Positions 11,757 to 31,917 are shown, counted from the first letter of the stretch. The stretch: DNA of 38,116 nt from a virus (IMGVR_UViG_2802429226_000004:1-38116), one strand, 5' to 3'. A program made the numbers and translations. The notes: generated from the sequence alone by a model not told the origin.

Positions 11757-12087
11757 ATCAGCAGCAGAGCGCAAAGCCGCTCAGAGAGCCAGACAAGCTG
11801 CATCTGGTGTGCGTAAGCTGGAGATTGTGCTTGATGCTCAGGAAATTGAAATGCTTGAGCGTAACTGTGCCGCGCGTCGCCCCGGGCGTGCGCCTTACGA
11901 ATTTGGTGAGTATATAGCGTTACTTATCCGCCAGGATGATGCACGCGTGCGCGGGCGTATAAAATCGATCAGCAGAAAACGTTGCGGTAAGTGCGGCGAG
12001 AGAGTTCCAGTTAATTCATGCCCGTGTAATGGTGACTCGCAATGCTGGGTGACTAAAGGCTGGCATGAAACGAAATTAATAGTGTGA
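11749..12087 (+). CDS. zinc-finger protein, candidate late-gene regulator
   Basis: 112 aa; C-terminal CGKCGERVPVNSCPCNGDSQC Cys4 cluster; last gene before a strong terminator and the terminase operon. Confidence 0.5.
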   Translation: MAKSAAERKAAQRARQAASGVRKLEIVLDAQEIEMLERNCAARRPGRAPYEFGEYIALLIRQDDARVRGRIKSISRKRCGKCGERVPVNSCPCNGDSQCWVTKGWHETKLIV

Positions 12088-12135
12088 CATGTCACGAGTA
12101 GATTATGCATGATGAATTTGATGTGTTTTGAATAC

Positions 12136-12162
12136 TGCCGCCAACTATGGCGGCTTTATTTT
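12136..12162 (+). terminator. rho-independent terminator between early/accessory genes and the late operon
   Basis: CTGCCGCC-AACTAT-GGCGGC hairpin followed by TTTATTTT. Confidence 0.7.
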
Positions 12163-12172
12163 GCATGGTACT

Positions 12173-12207
12173 ATTACCACAACGGTAACTATTACCACGG
12201 TGGTTAT
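12173..12207. promoter_or_regulatory. two tandem 17-bp inverted repeats abutting the terminase small subunit start
   Basis: ATTACCACAACGGTAAC (12173-12189) and ATTACCACGGTGGTTAT (12191-12207), same family as the OL/OR operators. Confidence 0.45.
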
Positions 12208-12802
12208 GATGCCTGCTGAACCTAAAACCTATAAACGCAAATCAACGCAATTTAAGCCACTAACAGCAATGCAGGAGGCTTATTGCCAGTCATACATCAA
12301 AACGCCTGAAAACCAGACTCAGGCAGCGATTAACGCAGGATTCTCCCCAAATACAGCGGCAGTTAAAGCCAGCGTCATGATGCGCGATGAACGCATTCAA
12401 AAACGGATTGCCGAGTTGATGGAAGAGCGCAACAAACGAATGCGCGTCAGTGCTGATTACGTTCTCATGCGCCTGGTGGAGATCGACCAGATGGACGTGA
12501 TCGATATCCTCAACGACGATGGGAGCCTTAAACCAATCCGTGAGTGGCCGAAAATCTGGCGCACTACGCTTAGTGGCTTTGATCTGTCATCGACCATCAT
12601 GAACATGAACGAGGATTCGATAGAGACAATCCTCAAAAAAATTAAATGGCCTGACAAGGTGAAGAACCTTGAGCTTATTGGTAAGCATGTTGATGTCAAC
12701 GCGTTCAAAGAACGTCTGGATGTTAATGTGAATGTGACAATTGCTGATCGCATAGCAGCAGCTAGGAAGCGACTCAAAGAACGTCAGGATGGTAATCAGT
12801 GA
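12208..12802 (+). CDS. terminase small subunit
   Basis: 198 aa from ATG 12208; directly precedes and overlaps the large subunit gene; the upstream TTG extension was rejected because it runs through the terminator hairpin. Confidence 0.65.
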
Positions 12803-14274
12803 CAGATACAGCGTTATCTCCTGAAGAGCAGTTAATCGAGGATATTGCAGGGTTCACTCACGATCCGCTTGGCTATGCCCTCTATGCGTTCCCTTGGGGG
12901 GAAGAGGGGACTGAACTGGCACATGCCACCGGTCCACGTCAGTGGCAGGCCGATGCGTTCCGAGAGATACGTGATCACCTGCAGAATCCAGAGACGCGCT
13001 ATCAGCCGCTTATGCTGGCACGCGCTTCTGGTCACGGTATTGGTAAATCCGCATTCATCTCAATGCTGATCAACTGGGGCATGTCCACTTGCGAGGATTG
13101 TAAGGTCGTGGTGACCGCCAACACCGACAACCAGCTACGAACGAAGACCTGGCCGGAAATTATCAAGTGGTCGAACCTTGCTATCACGAAAGACTGGTTT
13201 ACCTGTACCGCTACCGCGATGTACAGCAATGATCCTGGGCACGACAAGCGGTGGCGAGCTGACGCAATCCCCTGGTCTGAGCACAACACTGAGGCATTCG
13301 CCGGACTACACAACGAGCGCAAACGCATCATCGTGGTATTCGATGAAGCGTCGAACATTGCGGATCTGGTGTGGGAAGTTGCTGAGGGTGCGCTTACGGA
13401 CGAAGACACTGAGATTATCTGGGTGGCGTTCGGAAACCCTACACGTAATACCGGGCGTTTTCGCGAATGTTTCCGCAAATACAAACACCGCTGGAAAACT
13501 GCGCAGATTGACAGCCGGACGGTGGAAGGTACTAACAAACAGCAGTTGCAGAAATGGGTTGATGACTACGGGGAAGACAGCGACTTCGTTAAAATCCGTG
13601 TGCGCGGCATATTCCCTGATGCATCTGAATTGCAGTTTATCCCTACCGGTCTTACTGATGAGGCAATGAAACGGGTGGTAACCGCTGCGCAGGTGGCACA
13701 TGCTCCGGTGATAATCGGTGTTGACCCGGCATATTCAGGCGTTGATGACGCGGTGATATACCTGCGGCAGGGGCTGCATAGTAAGGTGCTATGGACTGGC
13801 AACAAGACCACCGACGATCTGATTATGGCGAAGCGCATCGCTGACTTTGAAGACCAGTATCAGGCTGACGCGGTATTCATCGACTTCGGTTACGGAACCG
13901 GTTTGAAGTCAATCGGTGATGGCTGGGGACGTACATGGCAACTTGTTCCGTTCGGTGGTGCGTCAACTGACCCTCAGATGCTCAACAAGCGCGGGGAGAT
14001 GTTCAACTCATGCAAGACATGGCTGAGGTTGGGCGGGATGCTGGATGACCAGGAAACAGCGGACGATCTGTCTGCGGCAGAGTACAAAGTTCGCGTGGAC
14101 GGTAAAATCGTTATCGAACCGAAGGAAGATATCAAAGAACGACTTGGGCGTTCACCTGGTAAAGGCGATGCGCTACTGCTGACGTTTGCGTTCCCTGTGT
14201 CAAAGCGTCTGCTAATTCCCGGGCAGCAGAACCAGCAAGGCAAGGCCATTACAGATTACGATCCCTATGCTTAA
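12799..14274 (+). CDS. terminase large subunit
   Basis: 491 aa; Walker-A-like GHGIGKS near the N-terminus, ...IVVFDEASNI... and C-terminal nuclease-like region typical of terminase large subunits; GTG start overlapping the small subunit stop. Confidence 0.9.
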   Translation: MTDTALSPEEQLIEDIAGFTHDPLGYALYAFPWGEEGTELAHATGPRQWQADAFREIRDHLQNPETRYQPLMLARASGHGIGKSAFISMLINWGMSTCEDCKVVVTANTDNQLRTKTWPEIIKWSNLAITKDWFTCTATAMYSNDPGHDKRWRADAIPWSEHNTEAFAGLHNERKRIIVVFDEASNIADLVWEVAEGALTDEDTEIIWVAFGNPTRNTGRFRECFRKYKHRWKTAQIDSRTVEGTNKQQLQKWVDDYGEDSDFVKIRVRGIFPDASELQFIPTGLTDEAMKRVVTAAQVAHAPVIIGVDPAYSGVDDAVIYLRQGLHSKVLWTGNKTTDDLIMAKRIADFEDQYQADAVFIDFGYGTGLKSIGDGWGRTWQLVPFGGASTDPQMLNKRGEMFNSCKTWLRLGGMLDDQETADDLSAAEYKVRVDGKIVIEPKEDIKERLGRSPGKGDALLLTFAFPVSKRLLIPGQQNQQGKAITDYDPYA

Positions 14275-14316
14275 TCCGCTGGTGGGGATAATGTCGTTGA
14301 TATCCTCTGGTGAGGA

Positions 14317-14350
14317 TAAAACAAAGCCAGCTCGTAGGCTGGCTGTTTGT
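14317..14350. terminator. bidirectional rho-independent terminator between the terminase gene and the reverse-strand moron
   Basis: AGCCAGC-TCGTAG-GCTGGCT hairpin with T-rich tracts on both strands. Confidence 0.6.
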
Positions 14351-14364
14351 GACATGTCACGGTG

Positions 14365-14736
14365 TTATTGCTCGCTTAACTTCTGCTTCAGCAAGTAACC
14401 TTCAAGCATCCAGATTTTGTTTACAGCATTCTGCCGGGCAATCTTCCGACCAATTTCTGCATCAAAGTTTTCCGGGCTTGCACAGGCGCTCTCTCCGGTG
14501 ACGGTGAAGCCGTTGCGCAGCACCAGGACGCAGAACGTCAGCAGAGAAAGTGATTCGTGCGGCTGGTAGTTTACCTCTCCGCCAGTATGTTTCGCTTTTA
14601 TGGCTTTGCCAAAGGCACCATCCTCTGCTGTGAAATATGCCTCCTGAGCAATAATGCTTTCGATATGGTCTGGCGTAACGCGCGGAGCAGTTTTGCCTTT
14701 CTCAACGATTTCTTTTTCGATTTGCTGGTCGTTCAT
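14365..14736 (-). CDS. Gp49-like (N4 gp49 / Sf6 gp66 family) protein; moron
   Basis: 123-aa minus-strand ORF embedded in a plus-strand late operon; family assignment is tentative, from memory. Confidence 0.5.
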   Translation of the reverse strand: MNDQQIEKEIVEKGKTAPRVTPDHIESIIAQEAYFTAEDGAFGKAIKAKHTGGEVNYQPHESLSLLTFCVLVLRNGFTVTGESACASPENFDAEIGRKIARQNAVNKIWMLEGYLLKQKLSEQ

Positions 14737-14934
14737 AATCTCACCTTAAAAAAATGCCCGGCGAACCGGGCGAACTGGAAGCAATGAGTTATGCCTTCCG
14801 TGGCTGTACTGGTTTACAGCATGAAGTCATCGCAATGGCGTCCTGCTGTAAAAAGGGCGGTGATAGTCCTTCAAGGGAAACCATCACCGCCAAGCCCCTG
14901 GAACTTCTGGCATCACGGTCCTTAGGCGTGATTC

Positions 14935-15011
14935 TGGCGTGGCATGCAGGATTCGAACCTGCGACCAACCGCTTAGAAGGCGGTTGCTCTGTCCAGCTGA
15001 GCTAATGCCAC
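14935..15011 (-). tRNA. tRNA-Arg (anticodon UCU)
   Basis: Hand-folded 77-nt cloverleaf on the minus strand: acceptor GUGGCAU/AUGCCAC, D-arm GCUC/GAGC, anticodon stem ACCGC/GCGGU with loop CUUCUAA, T-arm GCAGG-UUCGAAU-CCUGC, discriminator G and encoded CCA. Confidence 0.85.
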
Positions 15012-15332
15012 AACGCTGAGAGCACTTAGCCTGTTAAGGCGCCACACTTTGTCGCGGCTCCATAAATGCTCTCATCGTTGTACCCTCGTCTCTTCCGAGG
15101 CGTTACACCGAATCGCCGGGATGGTGAATCCCCGTGCGCGGAATAAAACCGCTCGACTTGCACATTCCGGCTACCTGGTTCGTTTGCCCGAGCAAGGGAG
15201 GGTGCCCCTTAAACGTATCCAGACCGCTATCGGCGCATGTGCCATACGCCGTACTGCTCAAAATAAAAGCTCACTCCACCTGTTCAATTTAACGACAAGC
15301 CAGTCAGGTTAATAACCGGAATGAACTCTTTG

Positions 15333-15411
15333 CTTACCTGAAAGGTAATAATTAGTGCGTTAAATGTCAAGTATCTACGATAAATAAATCACATGTGGTT
15401 AAATTGGTAAT
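15333..15411 (+). promoter_or_regulatory. late-operon control region: operator-like 17-mer plus ACATGTGGTT-N5-GGTAAT element upstream of the portal operon
   Basis: CTTACCTGAAAGGTAAT at 15333-15349; ACATGTGGTT at 15391-15400; GGTAATAAT at 15406-15414. Confidence 0.4.
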
Positions 15412-15438
15412 AATTTAATTGCGTACGGAGTCATTGAT

Positions 15439-15645
15439 ATGTGCATGGGTAGCTCACCATCAGTGCCTGCAACACCAGAAGTTCAGGCAGCACCACAGGA
15501 GCAGGATGCCGCCGTTGTTGATGCCCGCGACGAAGAAACACGTCGCCGTCGCGCTGCTGCTGGTCGTAGTTCTACGCTGCTTACCGGTTCTCAGGGCGAC
15601 ACATCAACCGCTAATACCAGCGGTAAAACGCTGCTTGGTCAGTAA
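15439..15645 (+). CDS. small hypothetical protein (68 aa)
   Basis: GGAG RBS; Ala/Arg-rich low-complexity sequence; shares an identical 11-nt translation-initiation context with the portal gene. Confidence 0.4.
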   Translation: MCMGSSPSVPATPEVQAAPQEQDAAVVDARDEETRRRRAAAGRSSTLLTGSQGDTSTANTSGKTLLGQ

Positions 15646-15659
15646 CCGGAGTCATTGAA

Positions 15660-17339
15660 ATGGCGGAAACAACTAAAGAGCGATTGAACAAACAGTTCGC
15701 ACAACTTGAAAGCGAGCGTCAGTCGTTCGAGCCGCACTGGCGCGAGTTGAGTGATTACATCAACCCGCGTGGTTCCCGCTTTCTGACTTCTGAGGTCAAC
15801 CGTAACGATCGACGCAATACACGCATTATTGATTCGACCGGGACTATGGCGGCGCGCACTCTCGCCAGCGGCATGATGTCAGGCATCACAAGCCCCGCGC
15901 GTCCGTGGTTTCGCCTGGCTACGCCAGATCCTGAAATGATGGATTATGGCCCTGTTAAGTTGTGGCTTGAGGCGGTGCAGAACCGCATGAACGATATGTT
16001 CAATAAGTCGAATCTCTACCAGTCTCTTCCGCAGTTATACGGAAGCCTCGGCACATACAGCACTGGTGCAATGGCGGTGCTGGAGGATGACGAGGACATC
16101 ATTCGCACAATGCCATTCCCGATAGGCAGTTACTACCTGGCTAACTCACCTCGTGGCAGTGTGGACACCTGTTTTCGCAAGTTCTCTATGACTGTTCGTC
16201 AGCTTGTTCAGGAGTTCGGGCTAAATAACGTCAGCAAATCCGTAAAAAGCATGTGGGAAAGCGGCACCTACGAGAAGTGGATTGAAGTGATGCATTCGGT
16301 TTACCCGAACATTGACCGCGATACATCGAAGCTGGATAGCAAGAACAAGCCATTCAAATCGGTTTATTACGAGGTCGGTGGCGATAACGACAAGTTGTTG
16401 CGTGAGTCCGGATTCGATGAGTTTCCAATTATGGCTCCGCGCTGGGAAGTTAACGGCGAAGATGTTTATGGATCATCATGCCCGGGTATGCTGGCGCTTG
16501 GACCTGTTAAGGCATTGCAGCTTCTCCAGAAGCGCAAGTCGCAGTTGATTGATAAAGCCACCAATCCTCCGATGGTTGCTCCGACTTCCCTCAAGAATCA
16601 GCGCGCCTCCCTTCTTCCTGGCGACATCACGTATATCGATCAGATTACTGGTCAGGATGGCTTCAGGCCTGCTTATCTGGTTAACCCCAGTACAGCAGAT
16701 TTGGTGGCAGACATTCAGGACACTCGTCAAATCATTAACAGCGCCTACTTTGTCGATCTGTTCATGATGTTGCAGAACATCAATACCCGCTCGATGCCTG
16801 TTGAAGCGGTGATCGAAATGAAAGAAGAAAAACTTCTGATGTTGGGGCCGGTTCTGGAGCGTCTGAACGACGAATGTCTTAATCCTCTCATTGACCGCGC
16901 TTTCTCGATGATGGTGCGTAAAAACATGCTGCCGCCACCGCCTGACGCGATGGAAGGCATGCCACTGAAGGTCGAATACATTTCCGTCATGGCTCAGGCG
17001 CAGAAGTCTATCGGCCTGTCCAGTCTGGCGTCCACGGTTAACTTCATTGGTCAACTTGCACAAGCGAAACCAGAAGCTCTCGACAAACTCAACGTTGATC
17101 AGGCGATCGATGCATTCGCTGATATGTCTGGAGTGTCTCCAACCGTCATTGTTCCGCAGGAACAGGTTGAGCAGGCTCGCCAGCAACGGGCACAGCAGCA
17201 ACAGCAGCAACAAATGATGGCGATGGGGATGGCGGCGGCACAGGGTGCCAAGACGCTAAGCGAAGCTAAAACTTCGGATCCGAGTGTTTTGTCAGCTATG
17301 GCGAATGCAGTTAGTGGTCAGGGTGGGCAATCACAATGA
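15660..17339 (+). CDS. portal (head-to-tail connector) protein, T7 gp8-like
   Basis: 559 aa; C-terminal Gln/Ala/Met-rich tail ...QQQQQQQMMAMGMAAAQGAKT... resembles the T7 gp8 C-terminus; gene order portal-scaffold-capsid. Confidence 0.8.
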   Translation: MAETTKERLNKQFAQLESERQSFEPHWRELSDYINPRGSRFLTSEVNRNDRRNTRIIDSTGTMAARTLASGMMSGITSPARPWFRLATPDPEMMDYGPVKLWLEAVQNRMNDMFNKSNLYQSLPQLYGSLGTYSTGAMAVLEDDEDIIRTMPFPIGSYYLANSPRGSVDTCFRKFSMTVRQLVQEFGLNNVSKSVKSMWESGTYEKWIEVMHSVYPNIDRDTSKLDSKNKPFKSVYYEVGGDNDKLLRESGFDEFPIMAPRWEVNGEDVYGSSCPGMLALGPVKALQLLQKRKSQLIDKATNPPMVAPTSLKNQRASLLPGDITYIDQITGQDGFRPAYLVNPSTADLVADIQDTRQIINSAYFVDLFMMLQNINTRSMPVEAVIEMKEEKLLMLGPVLERLNDECLNPLIDRAFSMMVRKNMLPPPPDAMEGMPLKVEYISVMAQAQKSIGLSSLASTVNFIGQLAQAKPEALDKLNVDQAIDAFADMSGVSPTVIVPQEQVEQARQQRAQQQQQQQMMAMGMAAAQGAKTLSEAKTSDPSVLSAMANAVSGQGGQSQ

Positions 17340-17632
17340 CAGATTACGAAGACGATCAACTGAAAGAAGAAAACGCCCGTAAGCAACGTGACATGGCACA
17401 GCGTGAAATTGATGACATTCGCTTTGTCATGAGCAGTGAACAGGGGCGTCGCGTTGTCTGGTCTGTGCTGGAGAAAGGCCGTGTGTTTTCCGCTATCTCA
17501 CCGATGGACGCTATGGCAATGGCATTTAATGAGGGGCAGCGCAATCTGGCGCTGGAACTGTTTCAGCGCGTTATGGCGCATTGCCCTGAACAGTATTTGA
17601 AGATGGCCAAAGAGGCCAGTGAACAGGAGTGA
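17336..17632 (+). CDS. hypothetical virion-module protein
   Basis: 98-aa ORF, ATGA-coupled to the portal gene. Confidence 0.5.
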   Translation: MTDYEDDQLKEENARKQRDMAQREIDDIRFVMSSEQGRRVVWSVLEKGRVFSAISPMDAMAMAFNEGQRNLALELFQRVMAHCPEQYLKMAKEASEQE

Positions 17633-17634
17633 TC

Positions 17635-18330
17635 ATGAATTTATTTGAGCGTTTGCTGTATCGCCGTCTTTGCAATGAGCAACCAGTCGATGGTGGAGCA
17701 GCTCCGGCTGCGTCAGAACCGTCAGCGCCTGCAGGTGATAACCCTGCTCCAGCTGGTGATCCATCACAACAAGAAGGTGATAAGCCGCAACCTGTTGCTG
17801 ATGGCGATAAACCTGCTGATGACAAAAAGCCTGAAAGCGATAAGCAGGGTGAAAAAAAGGACGGCGATAAACCGGATGGTGCGCCGGAGAAGTACGAGTT
17901 TCAGGCTGCCGAAGGCGTAGAGCTGGATACAGAAGCGTTAAAGGAATTCGAGCCGGTGGCGCGAGAACTTAACCTGACCAACGAGCAAGCGCAAAAGCTG
18001 GTTGATGCTTATCCGAAGATTCTGGCAGGTGTTCAGCAGCGCCAGGCAGAAGCCTGGCAGAAAACAACCGAGCAGTGGGCTGCGGATGTAAAAGCTGACA
18101 AAGAAATCGGTGGCGACAAGTTGATTTCTAACCTTAGCGCCGCACAGCGTGCGCTTGACCAGTTCGGGACACCTGAACTCAAAGAATATCTGAACACCAC
18201 CGGGCTGGGTAATCACCCTGATCTGGTCAAAACGTTTGTGAAAATCGGAAAGGCTATGTCTGAAGATGGCATGGTCACCGGTGGTAATGAAGGCCAGCGT
18301 AGTGCGGCCGAAGTGCTCTATGGCAAATAA
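17635..18330 (+). CDS. scaffolding protein (putative)
   Basis: About 232 aa from ATG 17635 (AGGAG upstream); acidic, Pro/Ala/Asp-rich low-complexity N-half followed by helical region; located between portal and major capsid genes. Confidence 0.55.
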   Translation: MNLFERLLYRRLCNEQPVDGGAAPAASEPSAPAGDNPAPAGDPSQQEGDKPQPVADGDKPADDKKPESDKQGEKKDGDKPDGAPEKYEFQAAEGVELDTEALKEFEPVARELNLTNEQAQKLVDAYPKILAGVQQRQAEAWQKTTEQWAADVKADKEIGGDKLISNLSAAQRALDQFGTPELKEYLNTTGLGNHPDLVKTFVKIGKAMSEDGMVTGGNEGQRSAAEVLYGK

Positions 18331-18344
18331 GAGAGGAAATAACA

Positions 18345-19331
18345 ATGACTGTTAAAGGCTTAACTGCGCTAACGCTGGCTGACTGGGGTAAGCGCGTCGA
18401 TCCAAACGGGAAAGTCGATAAGATTATCGAGCTTCTCGGTCAAACTAACCCGATCCTTCAGGATATGCCTTTTGTCGAAGGGAACCTTCCTACCGGACAC
18501 CGAACCACCATTCGTTCTGGTTTACCTTCAGCTACCTGGCGTTTGCTGAACTATGGCGTACAGCCAAGCAAATCAACCACAGTGCAGGTAACCGATTCCG
18601 TTGGCATGCTGGAAACCTATGCTGAAGTCGATAAGTCACTGGCTGATCTGAACGGCAATACCGCCGAATTCCGCCTGTCTGAAGACCGCGCATTTATTGA
18701 AGCGATGAATCAGCAGATGGCGCAGACGCTGTTTTATGGTGATTCCAGCGTTAACCCTCAGCAGTTTATGGGACTGTCCTCCCGCTATTCCAGCCTGTCT
18801 GCAGGTAATGCTCAGAACATCATTGATGCTGGTGGCACGGGTACAGATAACACCTCAATCTGGTTAGTGGTGTGGGGCGAAAACACCGTGCATGGCATCT
18901 TCCCGAAAGGGCAGAAGGCTGGCATTCAGATGGAAGATAAAGGCCAGGTGACACTTGAAGATGCTAATGGCGGCAAGTACGAAGGCTACCGTACCCATTA
19001 CAAATGGGACAACGGACTTGCTCTGCGTGACTGGCGTTATGTTGTTCGCATTGCAAACATCGATGTCAGCAATCTTTCAGAACCTTCCTCTGCCGCAAAT
19101 ATTGCGAAGTTGATGGTTAAAGCACTGCATCGCATTCCAAACCGTGGCATGGGTCGCCCGGTGTTCTACATGAACCGCACTGTAGGCCAGGCTCTTGATT
19201 TGCAGTCTCTGGAGAAAACATCTCTGGCGATTAGCGTAAAAGAGACTGAAGGCGAGTGGTGGACGTCATTCCGTGGTGTACCAATCCGTGAAACTGATGC
19301 GCTTCTGGAAACAGAAGCCCGCGTGGTGTAA
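18345..19331 (+). CDS. major capsid protein
   Basis: 328 aa; GAGAGGA RBS; position after the scaffold gene, followed by a terminator a few genes later. Confidence 0.75.
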   Translation: MTVKGLTALTLADWGKRVDPNGKVDKIIELLGQTNPILQDMPFVEGNLPTGHRTTIRSGLPSATWRLLNYGVQPSKSTTVQVTDSVGMLETYAEVDKSLADLNGNTAEFRLSEDRAFIEAMNQQMAQTLFYGDSSVNPQQFMGLSSRYSSLSAGNAQNIIDAGGTGTDNTSIWLVVWGENTVHGIFPKGQKAGIQMEDKGQVTLEDANGGKYEGYRTHYKWDNGLALRDWRYVVRIANIDVSNLSEPSSAANIAKLMVKALHRIPNRGMGRPVFYMNRTVGQALDLQSLEKTSLAISVKETEGEWWTSFRGVPIRETDALLETEARVV

Positions 19332-19382
19332 CGCCTGTTATTAACCTGTGGGTCGTAACAGACCCACTAATGGAGAAAGAAG

Positions 19383-19820
19383 ATGATCACCGACAAACTG
19401 TTGATGTTCTCCGAAGCACAGGCGGTAACTGATACCGCGGCTTCTACTGACGTAATCGATCTCGGTCCAATTGACGGAAAACGTCGTGATATCGGCGTGG
19501 GTTACCCGCTTGAGTTTTGGGCGCTGGTTAACACAGCCGCCGCAGCAAGCGGTGATGCAACTGTAAACATCCAGTTGCAGACGAGTGAGGATAACAGCTC
19601 ATGGACCACTATTTATGATAGTGGTGCACTGGCAAAGACCACCCTGACAGCAGGTAAACGAGTTGTTTCTGCAAAGGTGCCTGCCGGTGTTCAGCGATAT
19701 CTGCGTGTTAACTACTCCGTCGCAACTGGCCCACTAACGGCTGGCGAATTCACTGCTGGTATCAGTCTTGATGTTGATGCCAATACGCCGTATCCGACCC
19801 GCTCAAAAGTAACTGGTTAA
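19383..19820 (+). CDS. head decoration / capsid-stabilising protein (putative)
   Basis: 145 aa, Thr/Ala/Gly-rich, immediately after the major capsid gene. Confidence 0.5.
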   Translation: MITDKLLMFSEAQAVTDTAASTDVIDLGPIDGKRRDIGVGYPLEFWALVNTAAAASGDATVNIQLQTSEDNSSWTTIYDSGALAKTTLTAGKRVVSAKVPAGVQRYLRVNYSVATGPLTAGEFTAGISLDVDANTPYPTRSKVTG

Positions 19821-19830
19821 GGTGATATCG

Positions 19831-20166
19831 ATGTCAGGTGAGAAACCAAGATACCGCGTTCTGCGCCTCTCTCATATCCATAACACTCTGTGGCCGGAGG
19901 GGGCAGAAATCGAATACGAAGGTGAGCCTGGTAGCGCACTGGAACCTGTTAACGATGCAGCCAGACAGGCAAAAGCAAAGGTTGCAGGAAAGGTGACTAT
20001 GGCAGCAACCAGCACCAAAATCATCAACGATGTGTCAGATGATGGTGAACTGGATAAGCTCCGTGAAGAGTACGAATTGCTCTTTAACGAGAAGCCACAC
20101 CATAACGCCAAAGCCGAAACGCTCCGCGAGAAGATCGCAGATAAGCGTAAAGAACTGGGCGTGTAA
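19831..20166 (+). CDS. hypothetical virion-module protein
   Basis: 112 aa from ATG 19831 with AAGGTG RBS. Confidence 0.45.
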   Translation: MSGEKPRYRVLRLSHIHNTLWPEGAEIEYEGEPGSALEPVNDAARQAKAKVAGKVTMAATSTKIINDVSDDGELDKLREEYELLFNEKPHHNAKAETLREKIADKRKELGV

Positions 20167-20184
20167 GCCTCGCGAATCAGACAA

Positions 20185-20204: not shown

Positions 20205-20216
20205 GCAGGAGTGTAT

Positions 20217-23616: not shown

Positions 23617-24080
23617 TGATTGATGTTCAAATTATTCCCGCTACCGAAGAGCATCTTCAGATGATTTTGCCGGATGTTCGTCAGGCTGATATTGACGAAC
23701 TGTATGCGGTATCGCTGATGACTACCGAAGATGCGCTGCGCGTTGGTCTTCGCACTGCGACTATGGCCTGGTCAGGGTTCGCGAACGGAGAACTGGTAAC
23801 CATGTTTGGTGTATCTCCGGCGTCAATGATCGGTGGCAATGGTACGCCCTGGCTGGTAGGAACCAGCCGTATTGAAAAATATCAGAAGACATTTCTGCGC
23901 CACTGCCGCCCTGTATTGCAGCAGATGCTGGCAGTTTATCCGCGCCTGGAAAACTACGTCGACGAGCGAAACCATGTTGCCAAAGCATGGCTGCACTGGC
24001 TTGGATTCAGGCTTGAAGAAGCCGCGCCTTATGGTGCTCTTGGTCTTAATTTCCACAGATTTCACATGGAGAGAAAATAA
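23616..24080 (+). CDS. internal virion protein (gp13 position), hypothetical
   Basis: 154 aa; overlaps the upstream stop; synteny only. Confidence 0.45.
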   Translation: MIDVQIIPATEEHLQMILPDVRQADIDELYAVSLMTTEDALRVGLRTATMAWSGFANGELVTMFGVSPASMIGGNGTPWLVGTSRIEKYQKTFLRHCRPVLQQMLAVYPRLENYVDERNHVAKAWLHWLGFRLEEAAPYGALGLNFHRFHMERK

Positions 24081-24625
24081 TGTGCGATCCGGTTATTGCT
24101 GGTGGCGCAATGCTCGCCATGAGTGGCATTCAGGCATACACCCAGTACCAACAGGGAAAGTATGCCTCGAAGGTTGCAGAAGCGAACGCAGATATAGCCA
24201 CAGCTCAGGCAAATGATGCAATAAACAGAGGTAACGCTGAAGCTGAGCAACGACGCAGAGAGACCCGACAGCGGCTTGGTACACAGGCGGCGACAATGGG
24301 GGCTACCGGCGCTGATTTATCTACAGGTAACGCGCTGGATATATTTGGCGACACTGCCAAGTTTGGCGCTCTTGATTCGCTGACGACGGTGAATAACGCG
24401 CAACGCGAGGCTTACGGTTATCAGGTTCAGGCTGCCAACTATAAAGCAGAAGCCAGTTCAGCCCGTAAACAGGGGAATGTGGGAGCAGCAACAACATTGC
24501 TCACTGCGCCTCTGAAGGCATACGGTGCGTACCAGATGTTTGGTGGGACGTGGAGTCCGTTTACTCAAAGCACTCCTGCGCCAATCGGGGCAGCAGCAGG
24601 AACCAGATTACCCGGAGGATTATAA
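24080..24625 (+). CDS. internal virion protein B-like (T7 gp14-like)
   Basis: 181 aa; N-terminus MCDPVIAGGAMLAMSGIQAYTQYQQGKY resembles the T7 gp14 N-terminus (MC...AISGAQA...) as recalled; Ala/Gly-rich. Confidence 0.55.
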   Translation: MCDPVIAGGAMLAMSGIQAYTQYQQGKYASKVAEANADIATAQANDAINRGNAEAEQRRRETRQRLGTQAATMGATGADLSTGNALDIFGDTAKFGALDSLTTVNNAQREAYGYQVQAANYKAEASSARKQGNVGAATTLLTAPLKAYGAYQMFGGTWSPFTQSTPAPIGAAAGTRLPGGL

Positions 24626-27138
24626 TGCCAGTCGTACCAACAGTATCCGGACGTCAGGTTGAGAGCCGTGGAGTTCAGTCAGCAGGCTTGCAGACGTTTT
24701 CTCAGCCAGGTATTGGTGATGCTTTTGTTCTGGCAGGGGAAGAGGCAATTGATGTTTTTGGGCAGGCAAAACAGCGTGCCAATATTGCCTTGGCTCAGGA
24801 GGCATCTCTTAACCTCAGTCAGATAAGCAGTGATTTGCTGAATAATCCTGAAACAGGATTGCTTAACCTGAAAGGGAAAAATGCTATTGGAAAAGGCCAT
24901 GAGTATACGCAGCAGTTTGATGCTCAGGTCGAACAATTGGCTATGTCGCTGCCGGATGAACAGGCTCGTAATGCTTTCATGCAGCAGGCGCAGCAGCAGC
25001 GCATTCAGTTCACTACGCAGGCCGGGCGGCACGAGATAGGGCAAATAAATGCCTACGAAGAAGGCCAGTTTCAGGCGACGCTGCTGAACAATGGTAAAAA
25101 TGCCGCAGCATTGTATGGCGACAACGCCGCATACGTATTGGCTAATAAGCAAACTTTCCAGCAAATTGAGGATTACGGTGTTGCACATGGCTGGAGCAAC
25201 GAGCAAATCCATGCCAAGAAAATCGAGTTTAAAGAGAAGGTTGCTGATGCTGCATTGTCCCAGTGGTCGGCAAACAATGCGACCGCATTCATCCAAAGTA
25301 ATGGCGAGTTAAGTGATACTGCTGCTGGAGCTCGCCGTGCTGTAGCAGATAGTGACTCTTCCGAGCGTGCCCGTGGCATACGCAACAATAACCCAGGAAA
25401 TCTCGAATACAGCAAAACTAATCCGTGGGTAGGCCAGACCGGTGATGATGGTCGATTTGCTAAATTCGAAACACCTGAACACGGGATTCGTGCATTAGGG
25501 CGGAACCTGATGTCGTATCAGAGGCAGGGTATTGATACCGTCAGCGAGATAATTAATCGCTGGGCACCGCCTGCTGATAAAAATGACACTATGTCGTATA
25601 TCAAAGCAGTGTGCGAACAACTTGGCGTTTCTGCTGATGAGCCTCTCGATGCATCTAATCCTGATACCCTGAAGGCGCTTTGTGCAGCCATTATCCATCA
25701 TGAGAACGGTAGCCAGCCATACAGTGATCAGCAGTTAACTGCTGGTGTCAGTGCAGCACTTGGTTTATCAACAATTCCAACCAACACCAAACGCTATACC
25801 GGTAATGCAGCATTCGATGCGGCATCTCCTGAGGCGCAGGCAAGTTTTATGCGACAGGCGGATCAACTGCGTCGGCAGCAGCAGGCTGAATATAAAACGA
25901 TGATTGACAGCCAGGTTCGCGATGCGACAGCTGCGTATATGCGTGGCGTTGAATTTCCTAACCCACCTGGTGAGGCTGATTTTATTGCAGCTTATGGAGT
26001 AAGAGAAGGAAACCTGCGATATACCGAGTTCAGAAATACGCAAATCGCCGGACAGTATATAGGCTCTTTCCGCAACATGCCGACAAGCAGCATTACAGCA
26101 TATGTTGAGCAATTACGCCCGGATACTGGTGAGACAGGGGAGGGTTATGCGGCACGAGCCGCTCTTTATGACAACGTTGTGTCGGCTGCAAGTCAGGTGA
26201 TAAAGCAGCGACAGGCTGATCCTGTACAGTTCTCTCTTGCCGCCGGACAGGCAAAGCCTATCGACATGAGCAATAAGGATAACTTTGGACAGAGCGTTGC
26301 CTTGCGTGCTGCTCAGGTCAGTGACCTTGCTAAGTCATATGGCACTCCACTGACGTTCTTTTCCAAAGACGAGGCCAATCAGATCGGTGTTTTCTTTCGT
26401 GATGCGCCCGTTTCCCAACAGGCAGCATATCTCGATACCATCAGGCAGAGCACTGGTGGTGGGCAGGTGTATATGTCAGCACTACAGCAGATCAGTGCCA
26501 ACGCTCCATCTGCTGCCGTTGCCGGGATACTGATGGATAAGCCAGGTGGTATTTTGGCAGAAAAAAACTGGTTTAATCCGGATGTTTCCGTGTCTCCAGA
26601 AACCGCTGCGCAGACAATTCTTGCTGGCGCGGCGGCTCGTAAAGGTACTGATGACGCGAAAGGTATTCCGATGCCTAAAGATGCTGATCTTCGCCTTGAG
26701 TTTTCTGACATGGTGAAGAATGCATTTGCTGGTGATGCTCAGGGGGCATCAATGGCATACGAGATCGCAAAGGACTATTACGCTGGTGTGATGGCGAAAA
26801 AAGGCGTGGTATCAGGCGAAATTGACAATGATATCTGGAAACAGGCTGTTAACGTAGCTACAGGTGGCGTGCATGACTATAACGGAATGGGGAATGTTCT
26901 TTTGCCGTGGGGAATGTCTGCAGAGCAATTCGATAAGCAGGTTAATCAGGCTTGGAATGAACAAGTTGTTGGCACAGGGATAAAAACACCGCCTGGTCAG
27001 TATGGTTTGCAAAGTTACGGCGATAGTCAGTACCTGGTGAAACTTGGTACTGGTTATCTGCTAAAAGATGATGGTTCTCCCGTTGTTCTTGATCTGACAC
27101 AGAAGCGTCAGAGATTCTCCGGAGATATTCCGCAATGA
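24625..27138 (+). CDS. internal virion / ejection protein (gp15 position) with a conserved NNPGN...WAPP segment
   Basis: 837 aa from ATG 24625 (GGAGG RBS, TAATG overlap); contains RNNNPGNLEY...GIRALGRNL...IINRWAPP. Confidence 0.6.
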   Translation: MPVVPTVSGRQVESRGVQSAGLQTFSQPGIGDAFVLAGEEAIDVFGQAKQRANIALAQEASLNLSQISSDLLNNPETGLLNLKGKNAIGKGHEYTQQFDAQVEQLAMSLPDEQARNAFMQQAQQQRIQFTTQAGRHEIGQINAYEEGQFQATLLNNGKNAAALYGDNAAYVLANKQTFQQIEDYGVAHGWSNEQIHAKKIEFKEKVADAALSQWSANNATAFIQSNGELSDTAAGARRAVADSDSSERARGIRNNNPGNLEYSKTNPWVGQTGDDGRFAKFETPEHGIRALGRNLMSYQRQGIDTVSEIINRWAPPADKNDTMSYIKAVCEQLGVSADEPLDASNPDTLKALCAAIIHHENGSQPYSDQQLTAGVSAALGLSTIPTNTKRYTGNAAFDAASPEAQASFMRQADQLRRQQQAEYKTMIDSQVRDATAAYMRGVEFPNPPGEADFIAAYGVREGNLRYTEFRNTQIAGQYIGSFRNMPTSSITAYVEQLRPDTGETGEGYAARAALYDNVVSAASQVIKQRQADPVQFSLAAGQAKPIDMSNKDNFGQSVALRAAQVSDLAKSYGTPLTFFSKDEANQIGVFFRDAPVSQQAAYLDTIRQSTGGGQVYMSALQQISANAPSAAVAGILMDKPGGILAEKNWFNPDVSVSPETAAQTILAGAAARKGTDDAKGIPMPKDADLRLEFSDMVKNAFAGDAQGASMAYEIAKDYYAGVMAKKGVVSGEIDNDIWKQAVNVATGGVHDYNGMGNVLLPWGMSAEQFDKQVNQAWNEQVVGTGIKTPPGQYGLQSYGDSQYLVKLGTGYLLKDDGSPVVLDLTQKRQRFSGDIPQ

Positions 27139-28937
27139 GTTACTTTGGCCTTAATCCAGTAAACCAGAATCAGCAGCTTGACGAAGCAGCATCAAATCCA
27201 GTTGGCTTTAACAGCGATGTTGGTTTTTTCGACAATGCTGTAGGAGCGGCATTGTCTGGTTTGTACTCCGGGCTGGTGGCAAAGCCAGATCAGTTGCTAT
27301 GGGCAGGGATGGATAAAATCGTATCCCCGATTGCTCAGCTTGTTAACGAAAACACCTCGCTCAATGACACTTCAGTTTCATACATTGCTGAGCAGAGAAA
27401 ACTAGCAGAGCAGCAGGTTAAGCGGCTGACGCCTGATGCCGCGACAACCGGAACCGCCGGGCAGGTCCTTTATGGGTTGTTCGATATGGGCGGGCAGGCT
27501 GTTGTCGGTACAACGCTCGGTGGTCCGGTCGGAGGTGCTGCGGCGGTAACTTCTCTACAGGGTTTTTCTGAGTTTGAACGGTTGACAGCACAGGGTGTTG
27601 ATTTCAGGACGGCGCAGGAAGCGGGATTAGTGCAGGGTATTACTGCTGGTGCCGGAACACTGATCCCTATGAGCCTCGGGTTACGTGCTGGTGGTGCGCT
27701 GGCGGAAGGTGTGGCGGCTCAGCTTGCGCGGACGGGTGAAAGTTCAGTGCGACGCGCCGCAGCAACAGCAGTACGTGCAACGCCAGATATTGCCTATGCC
27801 GCAGGTACAAATATTGCGTTCGGTATGGCACAGCGTGGGCTTACTGCAAAAACGCTTCGTGATGGTGGCTATAGCGAAATGGCTAACCAGTATGATGTGT
27901 TGGATCGACAGGCAATTGCTATTGATGCTGTTCTTGGGGTGGCGTTTGGTGGTGTCGGCAGATTTATTAACTCTCGCGGCGAGTCTACAAGCGCACCAAA
28001 TTTTTCACCAGTTGATATTGATGCTGCACTGGCGGCGAATGCCGCTCATCATGCTGAAATTGATATTGCTCCCGGCGTTCCGATCAACGTGCTTTCGCGT
28101 AATTCGCACATTCAGGCTCTGCGAAAAGCCATGTCTGATGTTAGCCAGGGGAGACCTGTAGACGTTGCCAGCATTGTTGAGTCTGCATCTTTCAGTGAAA
28201 TTCCTGGGCGCAAGAGTCTGCTGTCTCAGGCAGTTAATGAGGCTCTGTCATCTGTAGATGATGGAGTAACGGCGCGCGCTATAGAAAATCGGTTGCTTGA
28301 AGAACAGGCCGCGCAGCTTTTGTCGCGTGGCGATAGAAAGGTTTACCAGTCTGAAATCGCTAATAGCCAACGAATTATTGAAAATCTCACTGAACAGCGC
28401 GCACAAATTCTTGCAGAAGAGCCAACCGGTAGCGGTAAGGCTTTATCTCGTGCTAGATCAGATAAACAGGCCAGACTTCGCGATATTGACCAACGAATCC
28501 GGCAGGCACAAGAACGCCTGGAATTTTCTCGTAACGCGTTGGCGCCGCACGAGCCTGGAGGTCAGTTTTTTGAAGCTCGAGCAGAACTGGCACGACGACA
28601 GCAGGCAGAAAGTGAACTTAATGCTCAGGCTGTTTCATTCTATAAAACAGCAGAGGTCAGGACGCCAGAAGAAGTAGCTCCTTTTGAGCCCGGTAAGATA
28701 TTGCAACAGACAGAACAAAAAATGATGGCAGATCCGGCAGGAGATATTGATCTGCGTATAGCTGAAGACTCGCTGCTTGAATCACCTGACATGATAATCA
28801 CCGTGCTGGATGATGATGGTAATCCACAATCGCGCAGTGCGCGTGAAGTACTGGATGAAGCGAACAGGGAAAGTGAGCAGGCAATACAGGATTCCAGCCT
28901 GTTTGATGTTGCTGTGGCGTGTTTCTTGAGAGGTTAA
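27135..28937 (+). CDS. internal virion / ejection protein
   Basis: 600 aa, Ala/Gly-rich with long helical C-half; ATGA overlap with the upstream gene. Confidence 0.6.
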   Translation: MSYFGLNPVNQNQQLDEAASNPVGFNSDVGFFDNAVGAALSGLYSGLVAKPDQLLWAGMDKIVSPIAQLVNENTSLNDTSVSYIAEQRKLAEQQVKRLTPDAATTGTAGQVLYGLFDMGGQAVVGTTLGGPVGGAAAVTSLQGFSEFERLTAQGVDFRTAQEAGLVQGITAGAGTLIPMSLGLRAGGALAEGVAAQLARTGESSVRRAAATAVRATPDIAYAAGTNIAFGMAQRGLTAKTLRDGGYSEMANQYDVLDRQAIAIDAVLGVAFGGVGRFINSRGESTSAPNFSPVDIDAALAANAAHHAEIDIAPGVPINVLSRNSHIQALRKAMSDVSQGRPVDVASIVESASFSEIPGRKSLLSQAVNEALSSVDDGVTARAIENRLLEEQAAQLLSRGDRKVYQSEIANSQRIIENLTEQRAQILAEEPTGSGKALSRARSDKQARLRDIDQRIRQAQERLEFSRNALAPHEPGGQFFEARAELARRQQAESELNAQAVSFYKTAEVRTPEEVAPFEPGKILQQTEQKMMADPAGDIDLRIAEDSLLESPDMIITVLDDDGNPQSRSAREVLDEANRESEQAIQDSSLFDVAVACFLRG

Positions 28938-28942
28938 ATTAA

Positions 28943-31417
28943 ATGAGACAGGAATGTATACAAGCGGTCCAGCAGGCGGCGCAGCGCACGTTAACGGCGC
29001 GAGAAATACAGAACATTGAAGACCGCATTTATCGAAATATGCGCTCCATTGCTCGTGATGACCCGATGTCGTGGCGACAACTTTCCGAATCAGAGCGGCT
29101 GTATCGTGCAGCACAATTGGCATCTGAAGAATTACAGCGAGAAGCGGCATTAAAGAAACGTCGTGTGGCCCTCACTATAGCCGCACGTCAGAGATTGGAT
29201 AAATTTATCAATAGCTATCAAGGGGCTGATGGGAAACTTGGCGCTCTTAACCGTACTATTGCTTTTAATGCAGACGGTAAATCGAATTTCCTCTCTGTTG
29301 AATCCAGAACAAAAGCCACCCGTGATTATGCATTGAGTCAATTGCAGGAGGCATTCGAAGCAGTTGATCCTCGCTTTTTTGGTCTGTTTGAAGATGAAGC
29401 GGGCGTACGTGACCTGGTATATGAAATGCGGGGGCAAAATACTGGCAATGCTAAAGCAAGAAAAGGTGCTAAGGCGTGGAGAGAAGTGACAGAGCTACTG
29501 CGCCGCCGGTTTAATGATGCTGGTGGGGACATTGGCTATCTCGAAAACTGGGGGATCCCTCAACATCATTCTATGGAAAAGGTTGGGGCGGTATCAAAAG
29601 ATAAATGGGTTAGCGATGTTATAGGTAAGCTGGATCGCAAATATTATACCCGAGCCGATGGACAACTGATGAACGATGCCGAGTTGTCTGCATTTCTTGG
29701 AGAGGCTTATAACACGATCGCTACTGGTGGGCTGAATAAGCTTACTGATACCGGAATGCGAATTTCCGGCGCACGTGCTAACCGTGGTAATGCATCACGA
29801 CAGATACATTTCAAAGATGCAGATTCCTATCTGCAATATCAGCAACTTTATGGCGATCGCTCTCTATGGGAAATCATGGTCGGTCACCTGGAAGGTATCA
29901 GTAAAGATATTGCACTGGTGGAAACATATGGTCCAAACCCCGATCATGTTTTCCGCTCTCTTCTTGATCAGGTGAAGGCAGAAACGGCAACAGCTAACCC
30001 GAGTAAAACCGGTAAAGTCGAGCGGCTGGCGAACAACACAGAGAATCTGTACAACTTTATTTCCGGAAAGACACAGCCTGTAGCGAATCCGCACATCGCG
30101 CGATGGTCTGACAATATCCGCAACTGGCTGGTTGCCAGCAGACTCGGATCCGCGTTGCTGTCATCGTTCTCTGATCTTGGAACCATGTATCTGTCTGCGA
30201 AGGTTACCAACCTTCCAATGAACCAGTTATTCCGCAACCAGCTTGAAGCTATGGACCCAACGAACCGTACAGAACTTGCGCGGGCGCGCCGCGCTGGTCT
30301 GGCGATGGAATCTCTACTTGGCAGCGTTAACCGCTGGGCGATGGATAATATGGGGCCGTCTGTGTCTCGTTGGGCTGCAACGGCGGTAATGCGTGCCAGT
30401 GGGCTTACAGCATGGTCAGATGCGCACAAGCGCGCCTATGGCGTAACCATGATGGGAAGCCTGGGAGAAGTAGTGTCACGGACACCAGACCTTCGTCGCC
30501 TCGATGACTCTGATTTTCGTATCCTGAAAAGCAAAGGGATTACTGACACAGACTGGAGCGTATGGAAGTTGGCGCAACAGGAGGACTGGGGGAACGGTAA
30601 TAATACGATGCTGACACCGGAAAGCATTATGCGTATCCCTGATTCAGCAGTTAAACATCTTGGTGAGCCTGAACGCGTGAAATTTGAGGCAATGCGTAAA
30701 CTGCTCGGTGCCGTAACTGAAGAAGTTGATATGGCTGTTATTACACCGGGAGCACGTGAGCAACTGATAACCGGTTCTGGTATTCAGCGTGGAACATGGA
30801 AAGGTGAATTAACGAGAAGTGTTTTCCTGTTTAAATCGTTCCCTATCTCGGTTGTTATGCGTCACTGGTCACGCGCTATGGGTATGCCGTCTGCTGGTGG
30901 GCGTGCGGCATATATTGCGACGTTTATTGCCAGTACGACCATTCTTGGCGCTTTGTCGCAACAACTTAACGACCTTGCGTCTGGTCGTAATCCTCGAGAG
31001 ATGACAGGAGAAGATGCCGCAAAATTCTGGCTTGGTGCTCTACTGAAAGGTGGTGGTCTTGGCCTTTACGGTGACTTTTTATTGTCAGATCACACTAGGT
31101 ACGGAAGCGGCGCGCTGGCGTCGATGCTTGGCCCGGTAGCTGGTCTAGTTGATGACGTAGTGAAGATTGCTCAGGGCATACCGTTAAATGCTGTGGAAGG
31201 GAAGAGTGAGCAGACTGGTGGTGATCTGGTGAAGCTGGGGAAAGGTTTGATGCCTGGTGCGAATCTCTGGTACTTGAAGGCGGCTCTCGATCACATGATC
31301 TTTAACCAGATGCAGGAGTATTTTTCACCAGGCTATTTGCGTAAAATGGAGCAACGTTCGAAGAAAGAGTTTAACCAGACATACTGGTGGCGACCTCAGG
31401 ATGTCACTCCGCAATAA
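28943..31417 (+). CDS. large internal virion / ejection protein (gp16 position)
   Basis: 824-aa ORF, last of the large ejection-protein series before the tailspike region. Confidence 0.6.
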   Translation: MRQECIQAVQQAAQRTLTAREIQNIEDRIYRNMRSIARDDPMSWRQLSESERLYRAAQLASEELQREAALKKRRVALTIAARQRLDKFINSYQGADGKLGALNRTIAFNADGKSNFLSVESRTKATRDYALSQLQEAFEAVDPRFFGLFEDEAGVRDLVYEMRGQNTGNAKARKGAKAWREVTELLRRRFNDAGGDIGYLENWGIPQHHSMEKVGAVSKDKWVSDVIGKLDRKYYTRADGQLMNDAELSAFLGEAYNTIATGGLNKLTDTGMRISGARANRGNASRQIHFKDADSYLQYQQLYGDRSLWEIMVGHLEGISKDIALVETYGPNPDHVFRSLLDQVKAETATANPSKTGKVERLANNTENLYNFISGKTQPVANPHIARWSDNIRNWLVASRLGSALLSSFSDLGTMYLSAKVTNLPMNQLFRNQLEAMDPTNRTELARARRAGLAMESLLGSVNRWAMDNMGPSVSRWAATAVMRASGLTAWSDAHKRAYGVTMMGSLGEVVSRTPDLRRLDDSDFRILKSKGITDTDWSVWKLAQQEDWGNGNNTMLTPESIMRIPDSAVKHLGEPERVKFEAMRKLLGAVTEEVDMAVITPGAREQLITGSGIQRGTWKGELTRSVFLFKSFPISVVMRHWSRAMGMPSAGGRAAYIATFIASTTILGALSQQLNDLASGRNPREMTGEDAAKFWLGALLKGGGLGLYGDFLLSDHTRYGSGALASMLGPVAGLVDDVVKIAQGIPLNAVEGKSEQTGGDLVKLGKGLMPGANLWYLKAALDHMIFNQMQEYFSPGYLRKMEQRSKKEFNQTYWWRPQDVTPQ

Positions 31418-31426
31418 GGAAGTGTT

Positions 31427-31600
31427 GTGTTTTTAATTATTTTGAGTGTGATAATTTCTGGTGTATTGTTATTTATTGACCGCTACAAATATTTTCTTAA
31501 CCCTCAGACTCAAGCTATTTGCTGGTTCATCTTTGTTGTGCAGGGAGTAGTTCTTGTTGCAAGCCTTATTGAGGGGAGGCCTCTTATTTTTACTGGGTAA
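31427..31600 (+). CDS. small hydrophobic membrane peptide (57 aa, GTG start)
   Basis: Hand-translated VFLIILSVIISGVLLFIDRYKYFLNPQTQAICWFIFVVQGVVLVASLIEGRPLIFTG with two predicted TM segments; AAGGA 6 nt upstream; AT-rich; not in the ORF track. Confidence 0.4.
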   Translation: MFLIILSVIISGVLLFIDRYKYFLNPQTQAICWFIFVVQGVVLVASLIEGRPLIFTG

Positions 31601-31612
31601 ATAGGTGACTAC

Positions 31613-31909
31613 ATGCAAGCTATAGGATTCATTGTTTATATCGTCGTTGGTCTTTTTCAGTTGGCAGCAATTATGGCTGGGCTTGAATCATGGTGGGGAT
31701 TGCACTGGATAATTGCAGCCCCCATTGCTTTCATCGTGAGCTATATTCCATTTGTTGGAGCGATTGTTGGTATGGTTGGCGCTGTGGATGTATGGCGGTG
31801 GGAGTGGTGGCAGGCTGGCCTTCTCTTCTTTGGTGGGATCATCTTTGCTATTGTCTGCGGTGGAATGTCATCATTTTTCGAATGGCTATCATTCAGAAAA
31901 GGTACGTGA
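31613..31909 (+). CDS. small integral membrane protein (98 aa, Trp-rich)
   Basis: AGGTGA RBS; three hydrophobic segments (..IVYIVVGLFQLAAIMAGL.., ..IIAAPIAFIVSYIPFVGAIVGMVGAV.., ..LLFFGGIIFAIVCGG..); followed by palindrome and terminator. Confidence 0.55.
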   Translation: MQAIGFIVYIVVGLFQLAAIMAGLESWWGLHWIIAAPIAFIVSYIPFVGAIVGMVGAVDVWRWEWWQAGLLFFGGIIFAIVCGGMSSFFEWLSFRKGT

Positions 31910-31917
31910 CATGTCAC

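Follow-up and report, generated by a model that had tools for sequence, protein, structure and literature searches.

A perfect 12-bp palindrome, GTGACATGTCAC, was found to occur exactly three times in the viral stretch IMGVR_UViG_2802429226_000004:1-38116, whose entire 38,116 nucleotides are referred to here as the window. This palindrome is a real, strongly conserved and non-random DNA signal that has been kept far beyond the sequences that flank it. The window itself is a prophage of the epsilon15/phiV10-like podoviruses, genus Uetakevirus. On a slight balance of probability, the general form of the palindrome, GTGAC-N2-GTCAC, is a cis-acting double-stranded DNA site whose ligand is most probably the small protein encoded by the gene that ends in the first copy. 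The three copies and this candidate gene are located as follows.

12084..12095, no strand: palindrome copy A; its bases 2-4 (TGA, 12085-12087) form the stop codon of the candidate-binder gene, open reading frame (ORF) 11746-12087.
14349..14360, no strand: palindrome copy B, between the hairpin on the terL side and the stop codon of a reverse cargo gene (4-nt spacer).
31906..31917, no strand: palindrome copy C; it supplies the TGA stop of the final gene in the structural operon, with a terminator hairpin beginning at the very next position.
11749..12087 (ORF 11746-12087), + strand: candidate binding-protein gene, 112 aa, of the epsilon15 gp49/phiV10 p55/N15 gp46 family, PHROG 536.

The three positions given in the original prediction were exact, and no copy was found elsewhere in the window. 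None of 100 dinucleotide-preserving shuffles of the window held even one copy, and GTGACATGTCAC was the sole repeated 12-bp perfect palindrome of the window. The surroundings that had been described for each copy were also correct: copy A overlaps a stop codon ahead of a terminator, copy B lies between a terminator and the 3' end of a reverse-strand Gp49-like gene, and copy C overlaps a stop codon beside a terminator and the 3' end of a reverse-strand 90-aa gene. The neighboring features are listed below, together with a fourth, decayed copy.

12137..12154, + strand: intrinsic terminator, 41 nt downstream of copy A, between the early-right operon and terS.
14325..14344, - strand: terminator hairpin beside copy B, with a T-tract that is strong on the - strand and weak on the + strand.
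14365..14736, - strand: reverse cargo gene, Pfam PF13876 (Phage_gp49_66), one of at least four alternative cargoes in this slot.
31613..31909, + strand: 98-aa gene with its stop in copy C, PHROG 3075 (function unknown); a membrane-protein gene according to the original prediction.
31918..31935, + strand: intrinsic terminator directly after copy C.
31941..32213, - strand: 90-aa gene converging on copy C, with its 3' end at 31941 and weak similarity to an anti-repressor C-terminus.
36764..36775, no strand: decayed fourth copy at the Rz stop codon, ATAGCATGGCAT in the window.

Read on the - strand, the order at copy B is stop codon, 4 nt, palindrome, 4 nt and terminator. When up to two mismatches were allowed, one extra site was found at 17388-17399 (GTGACATGGCAC, single mismatch). 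It lies inside a coding region, in a small gene after the portal gene, and phiV10 has the same site (L001, 5306); it is probably coding sequence and not a functional member of the set.

Searching related genomes for the palindrome, as the original prediction had proposed, showed the perfect 12-mer at the same three junctions in all six whole relatives (epsilon15, SPN1S, Tyrion, HEMP4, Kp4865-1 and phiV10, the third copy of phiV10 being split across the ends of its record). The terL proteins of the six relatives showed 80-99% identity. In anchored alignments the 12 bases were invariant, and the adjoining terminators, stop contexts and neighboring genes had diverged or been swapped. The fourth copy, over the Rz stop, was close to intact in SPN1S (GTGACATGTCAT); epsilon15 had a weaker form (GTGACATGGCAT), and in the window, where the stop codon is TAG, the copy has decayed. 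Its positions outside the window are 26722 in L083 and 26618 in L002. Taken together, the three shared junctions and the decayed Rz-stop copy show that every Uetakevirus copy, intact or decayed, marks the 3' end of a rightward transcription unit, namely the early-right, terminase, structural and lysis units. The detailed annotation of the epsilon15 record does not include this palindrome, and a literature search found no publication printing the 12-mer, no earlier description of it and nothing relevant on regulators of these phages. Two relatives, Acinetobacter phage Ab9 and phiSG1, both of which lack the gene, contained no copy of the palindrome, phiSG1 being too degraded to be informative.

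Homologues of the 112-aa protein were detected by tblastn in unrelated phages whose hosts belong to Enterobacterales, Vibrio and Aeromonas. When one genome per species was scanned with a family alignment, 33 loci from Enterobacterales genomes were obtained. In these loci GTGAC-NN-GTCAC occurred 50 times in 611,697 bp, compared to 0.58 occurrences expected, and in 23 of the 33 a copy lay no more than 60 nt from the end of the homologue, mostly supplying its TGA. The homologue in the myovirus ZF40, gp22, was followed after 3 nt by one of that genome's three perfect copies, and the lambdoid phage Chlobot carried a single copy, 7 nt after the homologous gene. N15 gp46 ended in GTGACTGGTCAC, which spans its TGA, and the whole N15 genome held exactly three copies, all of the form GTGAC-TG/CA-GTCAC. 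The N15 copies (L249) are at 28550, 33237 and 39269, that is, after gene 33, inside repA (gene 37) and over the gp46 stop, respectively, and none of them is annotated. In seven of nine gene-carrying whole genomes that were scanned, the motif was the only repeated 12-bp palindrome; the exceptions were Chlobot, with its single copy, and ZF40, and in ZF40 a second, unrelated 12-bp palindrome is also repeated. Among 120 IMG/VR stretches containing TGTGACATGTCACA, the gene was present in 32. In the Yersinia phage vB_YenM_42.18 (L250), one perfect and one single-mismatch copy are found at 11675 and 11708, 33 bp apart and 3.4 kb downstream of the homologous gene, not at its stop.

The consensus of the site is Y-GTGAC-AT-GTCAC-R (TGTGACATGTCACG in its 14-mer form), with symmetric Y...R flanks. 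Only the two central bases vary, being mostly AT and otherwise CT, AC, AG, GC or TG. The centre co-varied with the predicted beta-strand of the corresponding proteins: TG was found with TRRDWVLE (N15 gp46), GC with NEIRARLE (Yersinia clade), and AT, CT, AC and AG with RK[LF]E[LI]xLD.

The protein family, which also includes ZF40 gp22, carries the PHROG label 'transcriptional regulator' and is small (214 representative clusters among 1.84 billion proteins). A first model built from a shallow alignment (predicted local distance difference test score, pLDDT, 68; no Foldseek match) was superseded by an AlphaFold2 model built from a diverse alignment, with a pLDDT of 93.9 and a predicted template modeling score of 0.71. 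The latter has a beta-alpha-alpha fold that resembles ribbon-helix-helix (RHH) DNA-binding proteins, including MatP, ParG-type proteins and TraM. With this final model, a Foldseek search of the PDB gave only a weak top match, TTHA0139, at a probability of 0.85. Neither the window protein nor its relatives reached any curated RHH sequence model at significance; sub-threshold Pfam matches to RHH_5, RepB-RCR_reg or RHH_1 were found in five of 54 family members. The protein is laid out as a basic N-terminal helix, the RHH fold and a C-terminal module with four cysteines, which presumably binds zinc. R13 and the four cysteines are invariant in the family alignment, R8 is nearly so, and the N-terminal helix, AERKAAQRARQ, is rich in arginine. 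Two other relationships were considered and dropped: a profile match to TraR/DksA-like zinc fingers (E 0.4) vanished with a second alignment, and homology to MatP by sequence gave hhalign probabilities below 1%.

Because the cis element is co-inherited with one family of DNA-binding fold across unrelated temperate enteric phages, the palindrome is interpreted as the probable operator of that protein. Of the three roles suggested in the original prediction, a protein-binding site appears to fit best, as judged from the predicted fold and from the way the motif travels with the gene. On this interpretation the dyad of the palindrome would be occupied by a protein dimer, in which the variable beta-strand would recognize the two central bases that vary and the arginines R8 and R13 the invariant GTGAC arms.

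The same distribution and fold could also serve an architectural role, and this is the main rival to an operator acting at transcription-unit ends. The protein would then be a miniature MatP or centromere-binder, about three dispersed copies would loop, pair or position phage DNA, and the location at gene ends and terminators would merely reflect where the 12-mer is tolerated. There are about three copies in each of three unrelated genome types (Uetakevirus, ZF40 and N15), some copies lie within coding regions at no fixed distance from promoters, MatP, ParG-type proteins and TraM are among the RHH relatives, and the arms are identical to those of matS, the site of MatP. In the classic parB-parS and sopB-sopC arrangement, the gene of the binding protein is followed directly by its site. 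The order in the phages is the same as for P1 parS, F sopC and the SopB sites of N15: the binder gene, then its own site, with additional copies dispersed. In contrast to centromere-type systems, which have a partition ATPase partner, no ParA-like partner gene is present, and most carriers are integrating prophages that need no partition system. Moreover, the N15 copies are distinct from the known sop system of that phage, Chlobot has just one copy, and the Uetakevirus copies mark the ends of rightward operons specifically, not any intergenic gap. An architectural role is thus considered rather unlikely.

A second alternative is that a host factor of enteric bacteria, MatP or SlmA being the candidates, binds the motif and that the phage gene is a mere neighbor. 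Enterobacterales, Vibrio and Aeromonas, to which the hosts of these phages belong, are taxa having MatP, and the motif persists in phages that lack the gene. The matS site is GTGAC[AG]N[TC]GTCAC and has been reported to be absent from prophages (PMC3603311). It has the same arms as the phage site, but it is 13 bp long with a 3-bp spacer, compared to 12 bp and 2 bp, so that the 13-bp pattern is not matched and the half-sites are rotated by approximately 36 degrees. The MatP sites are in the terminus region of the host, whereas the palindrome copies are on phage DNA. The N-terminal four-helix bundle of MatP is missing from the 112-aa phage protein, and in place of the C-terminal coiled coil of MatP the phage protein has the Cys4 module; the model of the phage protein resembles MatP in structure without significant sequence similarity. 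The SlmA-binding site, GTGAGTACTCAC, is also a perfect 12-bp palindrome of the form GTGA....TCAC and shares the outer four bases on each side (PMC3020112). Only eight of its 12 bases match, however, since all four central bases differ (GTAC in the SlmA site and CATG in the palindrome), and SlmA, unlike the phage protein, is a TetR-family host protein that acts on chromosomal sites. In addition, the three N15 copies share a phage-specific centre, which a shared Escherichia coli factor would not impose. Recognition by a host factor is therefore regarded as very unlikely. It is a possibility that the phage system descends from or mimics MatP/matS, which would link phage DNA to the chromosome-organizing machinery of the host.

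Copies that lie within genes indicate that selection acts on the DNA itself. In a gene of about 100 aa in the early-left region, upstream of a RecE-like exonuclease, the codons for Cys-Asp-Met-Ser were always TGTGACATGTCAC, although the homologues are very divergent. As divergent proteins keep exactly this sequence for these four residues, a cis site is embedded in the coding region. Copies in this gene were located at 5125 in ZF40 (L088), 232 in L103, 3890 in L104, 4164 in L105, 2039 in L109, 3487 in L110 and 1353 in L111. Other contexts were the 3' part of cII-like genes, the stop of a Cro-like gene, positions after scaffold-like late genes and the interior of N15 repA.

This DNA-level interpretation was weighed against an element acting in RNA, in which the transcribed palindrome would fold into a small hairpin, located either between cistrons or at the 3' end of an mRNA. 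Such a hairpin might be bound by the arginine-rich N-terminus of the protein, or its effect might be on the stability of the mRNA, on the weak stop (UGA-C) or on how the following gene is translated. In favor of this, transcription usually runs across the motif, and a stop codon is often part of it. A Shine-Dalgarno sequence begins within 1-2 nt after the motif in N15, in Chlobot and in the long variant of site A, and G-U pairing would be retained in two naturally occurring single-base variants, both of them C-to-T. As RNA, however, the palindrome forms only a marginal hairpin of 4 bp (-1.2 kcal/mol), C5 and G8 beside the variable centre never change, a pattern that suits a spacer in DNA better than it suits a recognized loop, the flanks are symmetric, and the predicted fold is of the type that binds duplex DNA. 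The nut/boxB elements, in contrast, have a stable RNA hairpin for an arginine-rich peptide. An RNA-level role was accordingly judged improbable to a high degree. Read-through or re-initiation at UGA-C-AUG was considered separately and rejected on sequence inspection, as the downstream frames are not conserved.

With regard to transcription, the palindrome is not itself an intrinsic terminator, having neither a GC-rich hairpin nor a T-tract, but separate terminators adjoin approximately 27-40% of copies. A terminator-like hairpin started no more than 10 nt away from 18 of 67 copies in the phage and genome loci, compared to 15 of 1200 random positions, and a further 10 of the 67 copies had one within 45 nt. 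Where a terminator was adjacent, the order on the strand with the strong T-tract was always palindrome, 0-4 nt, hairpin and T-tract. In 33 of 72 copies, a reading frame of 60 codons or more ended at the TGA of the motif, compared to 7% of control TGA triplets. In view of the Uetakevirus placement and the tight terminator spacing, control of read-through at unit boundaries seems the likeliest function. The bound protein might act on RNA polymerase as it passes the ends of transcription units, a step proposed here tentatively and at less than even probability, and the site would gate or reinforce termination between modules; the direction, read-through or block, could be either. A bolder version, in which the system is a new kind of phage transcription punctuation, with a DNA-tethered RHH-zinc factor upstream of single terminators and inside early operons that switches between stop and read-through, is unlikely.

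Several known arrangements are relevant to this proposal. As with lambda Q and tR', copy A presents a regulator gene that is last in the early-right operon (11749-12087), the presumed site (12084), a terminator (12137-12154) and then the late genes terS (from 12128/12207) and terL. This gene order holds for copy A only. Unlike the situation with Q, there is no evident promoter-proximal pause context, further copies lie between convergent genes, and the gene coexists with separate Q-like genes in ZF40 and Chlobot; no similarity of the protein to the Q family was found in Pfam or PHROGs. P22 Arc and Mnt, CopG, omega of pSM19035 and AmrZ are alike in fold, in small size and in having a short target with two-fold symmetry. 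The omega heptads are WATCACW, which the palindrome halves TGTGACA and TGTCACA resemble when inverted. Operators of the Arc/Mnt/CopG type overlap promoters, whereas the palindrome copies lie at gene 3' ends, at terminators or in ORFs with no consistent promoter, and the phage protein, in contrast to those regulators, has an extra putative zinc module and reaches no Pfam RHH model at threshold. For an RHH regulator with a palindromic site, three features would be unusual: the zinc module, a stop codon at which gene and site are linked, and sites that lie at the ends of operons, not at promoters. The CRP consensus is TGTGA-N6-TCACA, and the palindrome, TGTGA-N4-TCAC(A), does not fit this spacing.

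Other functions for the motif were examined and rejected. The only promoter-like matches overlapping the motif were weak ones (9 of 12), which used a half-site as the -35 element in inconsistent orientation and were no commoner than in shuffles, and divergent promoters built on the -35-like half-site GTGACA were dropped because the matches were inconsistent and no better than chance. A pac or cos site was ruled out, as there are three copies per genome and the motif is also found in N15, which has cohesive ends, and in lambdoid and P2-like phages with unrelated terminases; Ab9, moreover, has a related terL but no motif. The phiV10 record starts inside copy A, which merely reflects where the depositors cut the circle after the last gene and does not indicate a packaging site. 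A role as repressor operator was also excluded, since the sites annotated in epsilon15 as predicted prophage-repressor sites have a different motif, TTACC-N5-GGTAA, which occurs eight times in the window at other positions (5198, 5260, 5972, 8259, 8321, 12174, 15334 and 32276). The palindrome is therefore an element separate from the repressor sites. The tailspike gene, terS and the structural operon each have TTACC-N5-GGTAA a short distance upstream, and this placement suggests that the late operons are under direct repressor control.

The junctions at which the copies lie are mosaic. Copy B was compared among 80 IMG/VR relatives with 99-100% identical terL. To the left of the palindrome the sequence was conserved, and to the right there were unrelated alternatives starting at the cargo stop codon, four bases from the palindrome. 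In the 52 loci with enough sequence, four classes of reverse-strand cargo (less than 70% shared identity) began 0-7 nt to the right of copy B. Locus L035 carried two tandem cargo genes, each arranged as stop codon, 4 nt, palindrome, 4-5 nt and its own terminator, the two terminators being different. An orphan terminator is present in the window at 14756-14771 (- strand), directly upstream of the Phage_gp49_66 cargo gene; as the same terminator follows the second palindrome and cargo gene in L035, the window appears to have lost one cassette and kept its terminator. The variable slot between the terminase and structural operons also holds a tRNA-Arg gene (anticodon TCT) at 14935-15011 (- strand). 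To the right of copy A, about a quarter of close relatives have an ORF of approximately 70 aa (MPKIRYDLEDM...), of which the mini-ORF ATGCATGATGAATTTGATGTGTTTTGA at 12106-12132 in the window is an internally deleted remnant. Between L251 and the Klebsiella phage ST16-OXA48phi5.3, homology begins approximately 10 nt before the palindrome copy.

These cargo boundaries, the tandem cassettes of L035, the variable flanks of copies A and C and the onset of homology in the Klebsiella phage would all be expected if the palindrome existed to promote the exchange or insertion of accessory genes, as a recombination linker or nuclease target, with the conserved protein having no direct role. For homologous exchange, however, 12 bp is a very short stretch. 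No gene for a recombinase or nuclease varies together with the motif, and the fold of the candidate binder is neither that of a nuclease nor that of a recombinase, so that the nuclease or recombinase target put forward in the original prediction was not upheld. Copies inside conserved genes are not at junctions, any selected non-coding island looks like a junction in a mosaic genome, and the breakpoints lie at the cargo stop codon, as selection for intact genes predicts. A recombination role of this kind is most improbable. The association with junctions that had been predicted is real, although some copies, those in conserved coding regions, lie at no junction. It is best seen as a consequence of a selected, conserved island between exchangeable modules, a simpler explanation than the dedicated boundary device for moron acquisition that had also been suggested.

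A number of observations weigh against the protein-operator interpretation and against its proposed action at unit ends. The pairing of protein and site rests on co-occurrence and on a predicted fold, and the 112-aa protein of the window had no significant sequence match in Pfam, NCBIfam or the PDB. Ten of the 33 homologous genes had no copy at their end, and 64 of the 120 motif-containing stretches had neither the gene nor the Cys-Asp-Met-Ser gene, these stretches being short and some of them chance matches. In a Klebsiella-type group (L251-L284, and L331, which is ST16-OXA48phi5.3, at 7537), one copy lies over the stop of a Cro-like gene (Val-TGA), and no homologue of the protein was found within 10 kb (46 loci) or in the 29-kb record of ST16-OXA48phi5.3. 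This group shows that the motif can persist without the gene in cis; such a copy could be a remnant left by the exchange of modules, could be recognized by some other factor or could be served in trans. No terminator is near about half of the copies, and some lie inside genes (the cII-like genes, N15 repA and the Cys-Asp-Met-Ser gene), and for these reasons the adjacency to terminators could be a by-product of where the 12-mer fits in a compact genome. In addition, a simple roadblock is hard to reconcile with sites that overlap stop codons, as a tightly bound protein would halt polymerase before it had reached the stop.

If the pairing of protein and palindrome is true, a protein family now labeled hypothetical, whose members are found in well-studied model or applied phages (epsilon15, phiV10, SPN1S and N15), would gain a class of function as well as an exact target in DNA. 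The identity of the arms with those of matS makes it simple to test how a chromosomal signal of the host and a signal of the phage are kept apart by the length of the spacer. The pairing would also provide a 12-bp handle on the separation of early, packaging, structural and accessory transcription in phages without a known late-gene regulator, and it would explain why accessory genes are swapped at exactly these points. Should the site indeed serve as transcription punctuation, these phages would control the timing of transcription and insulate their morons with no need for a processive antiterminator such as N or Q.

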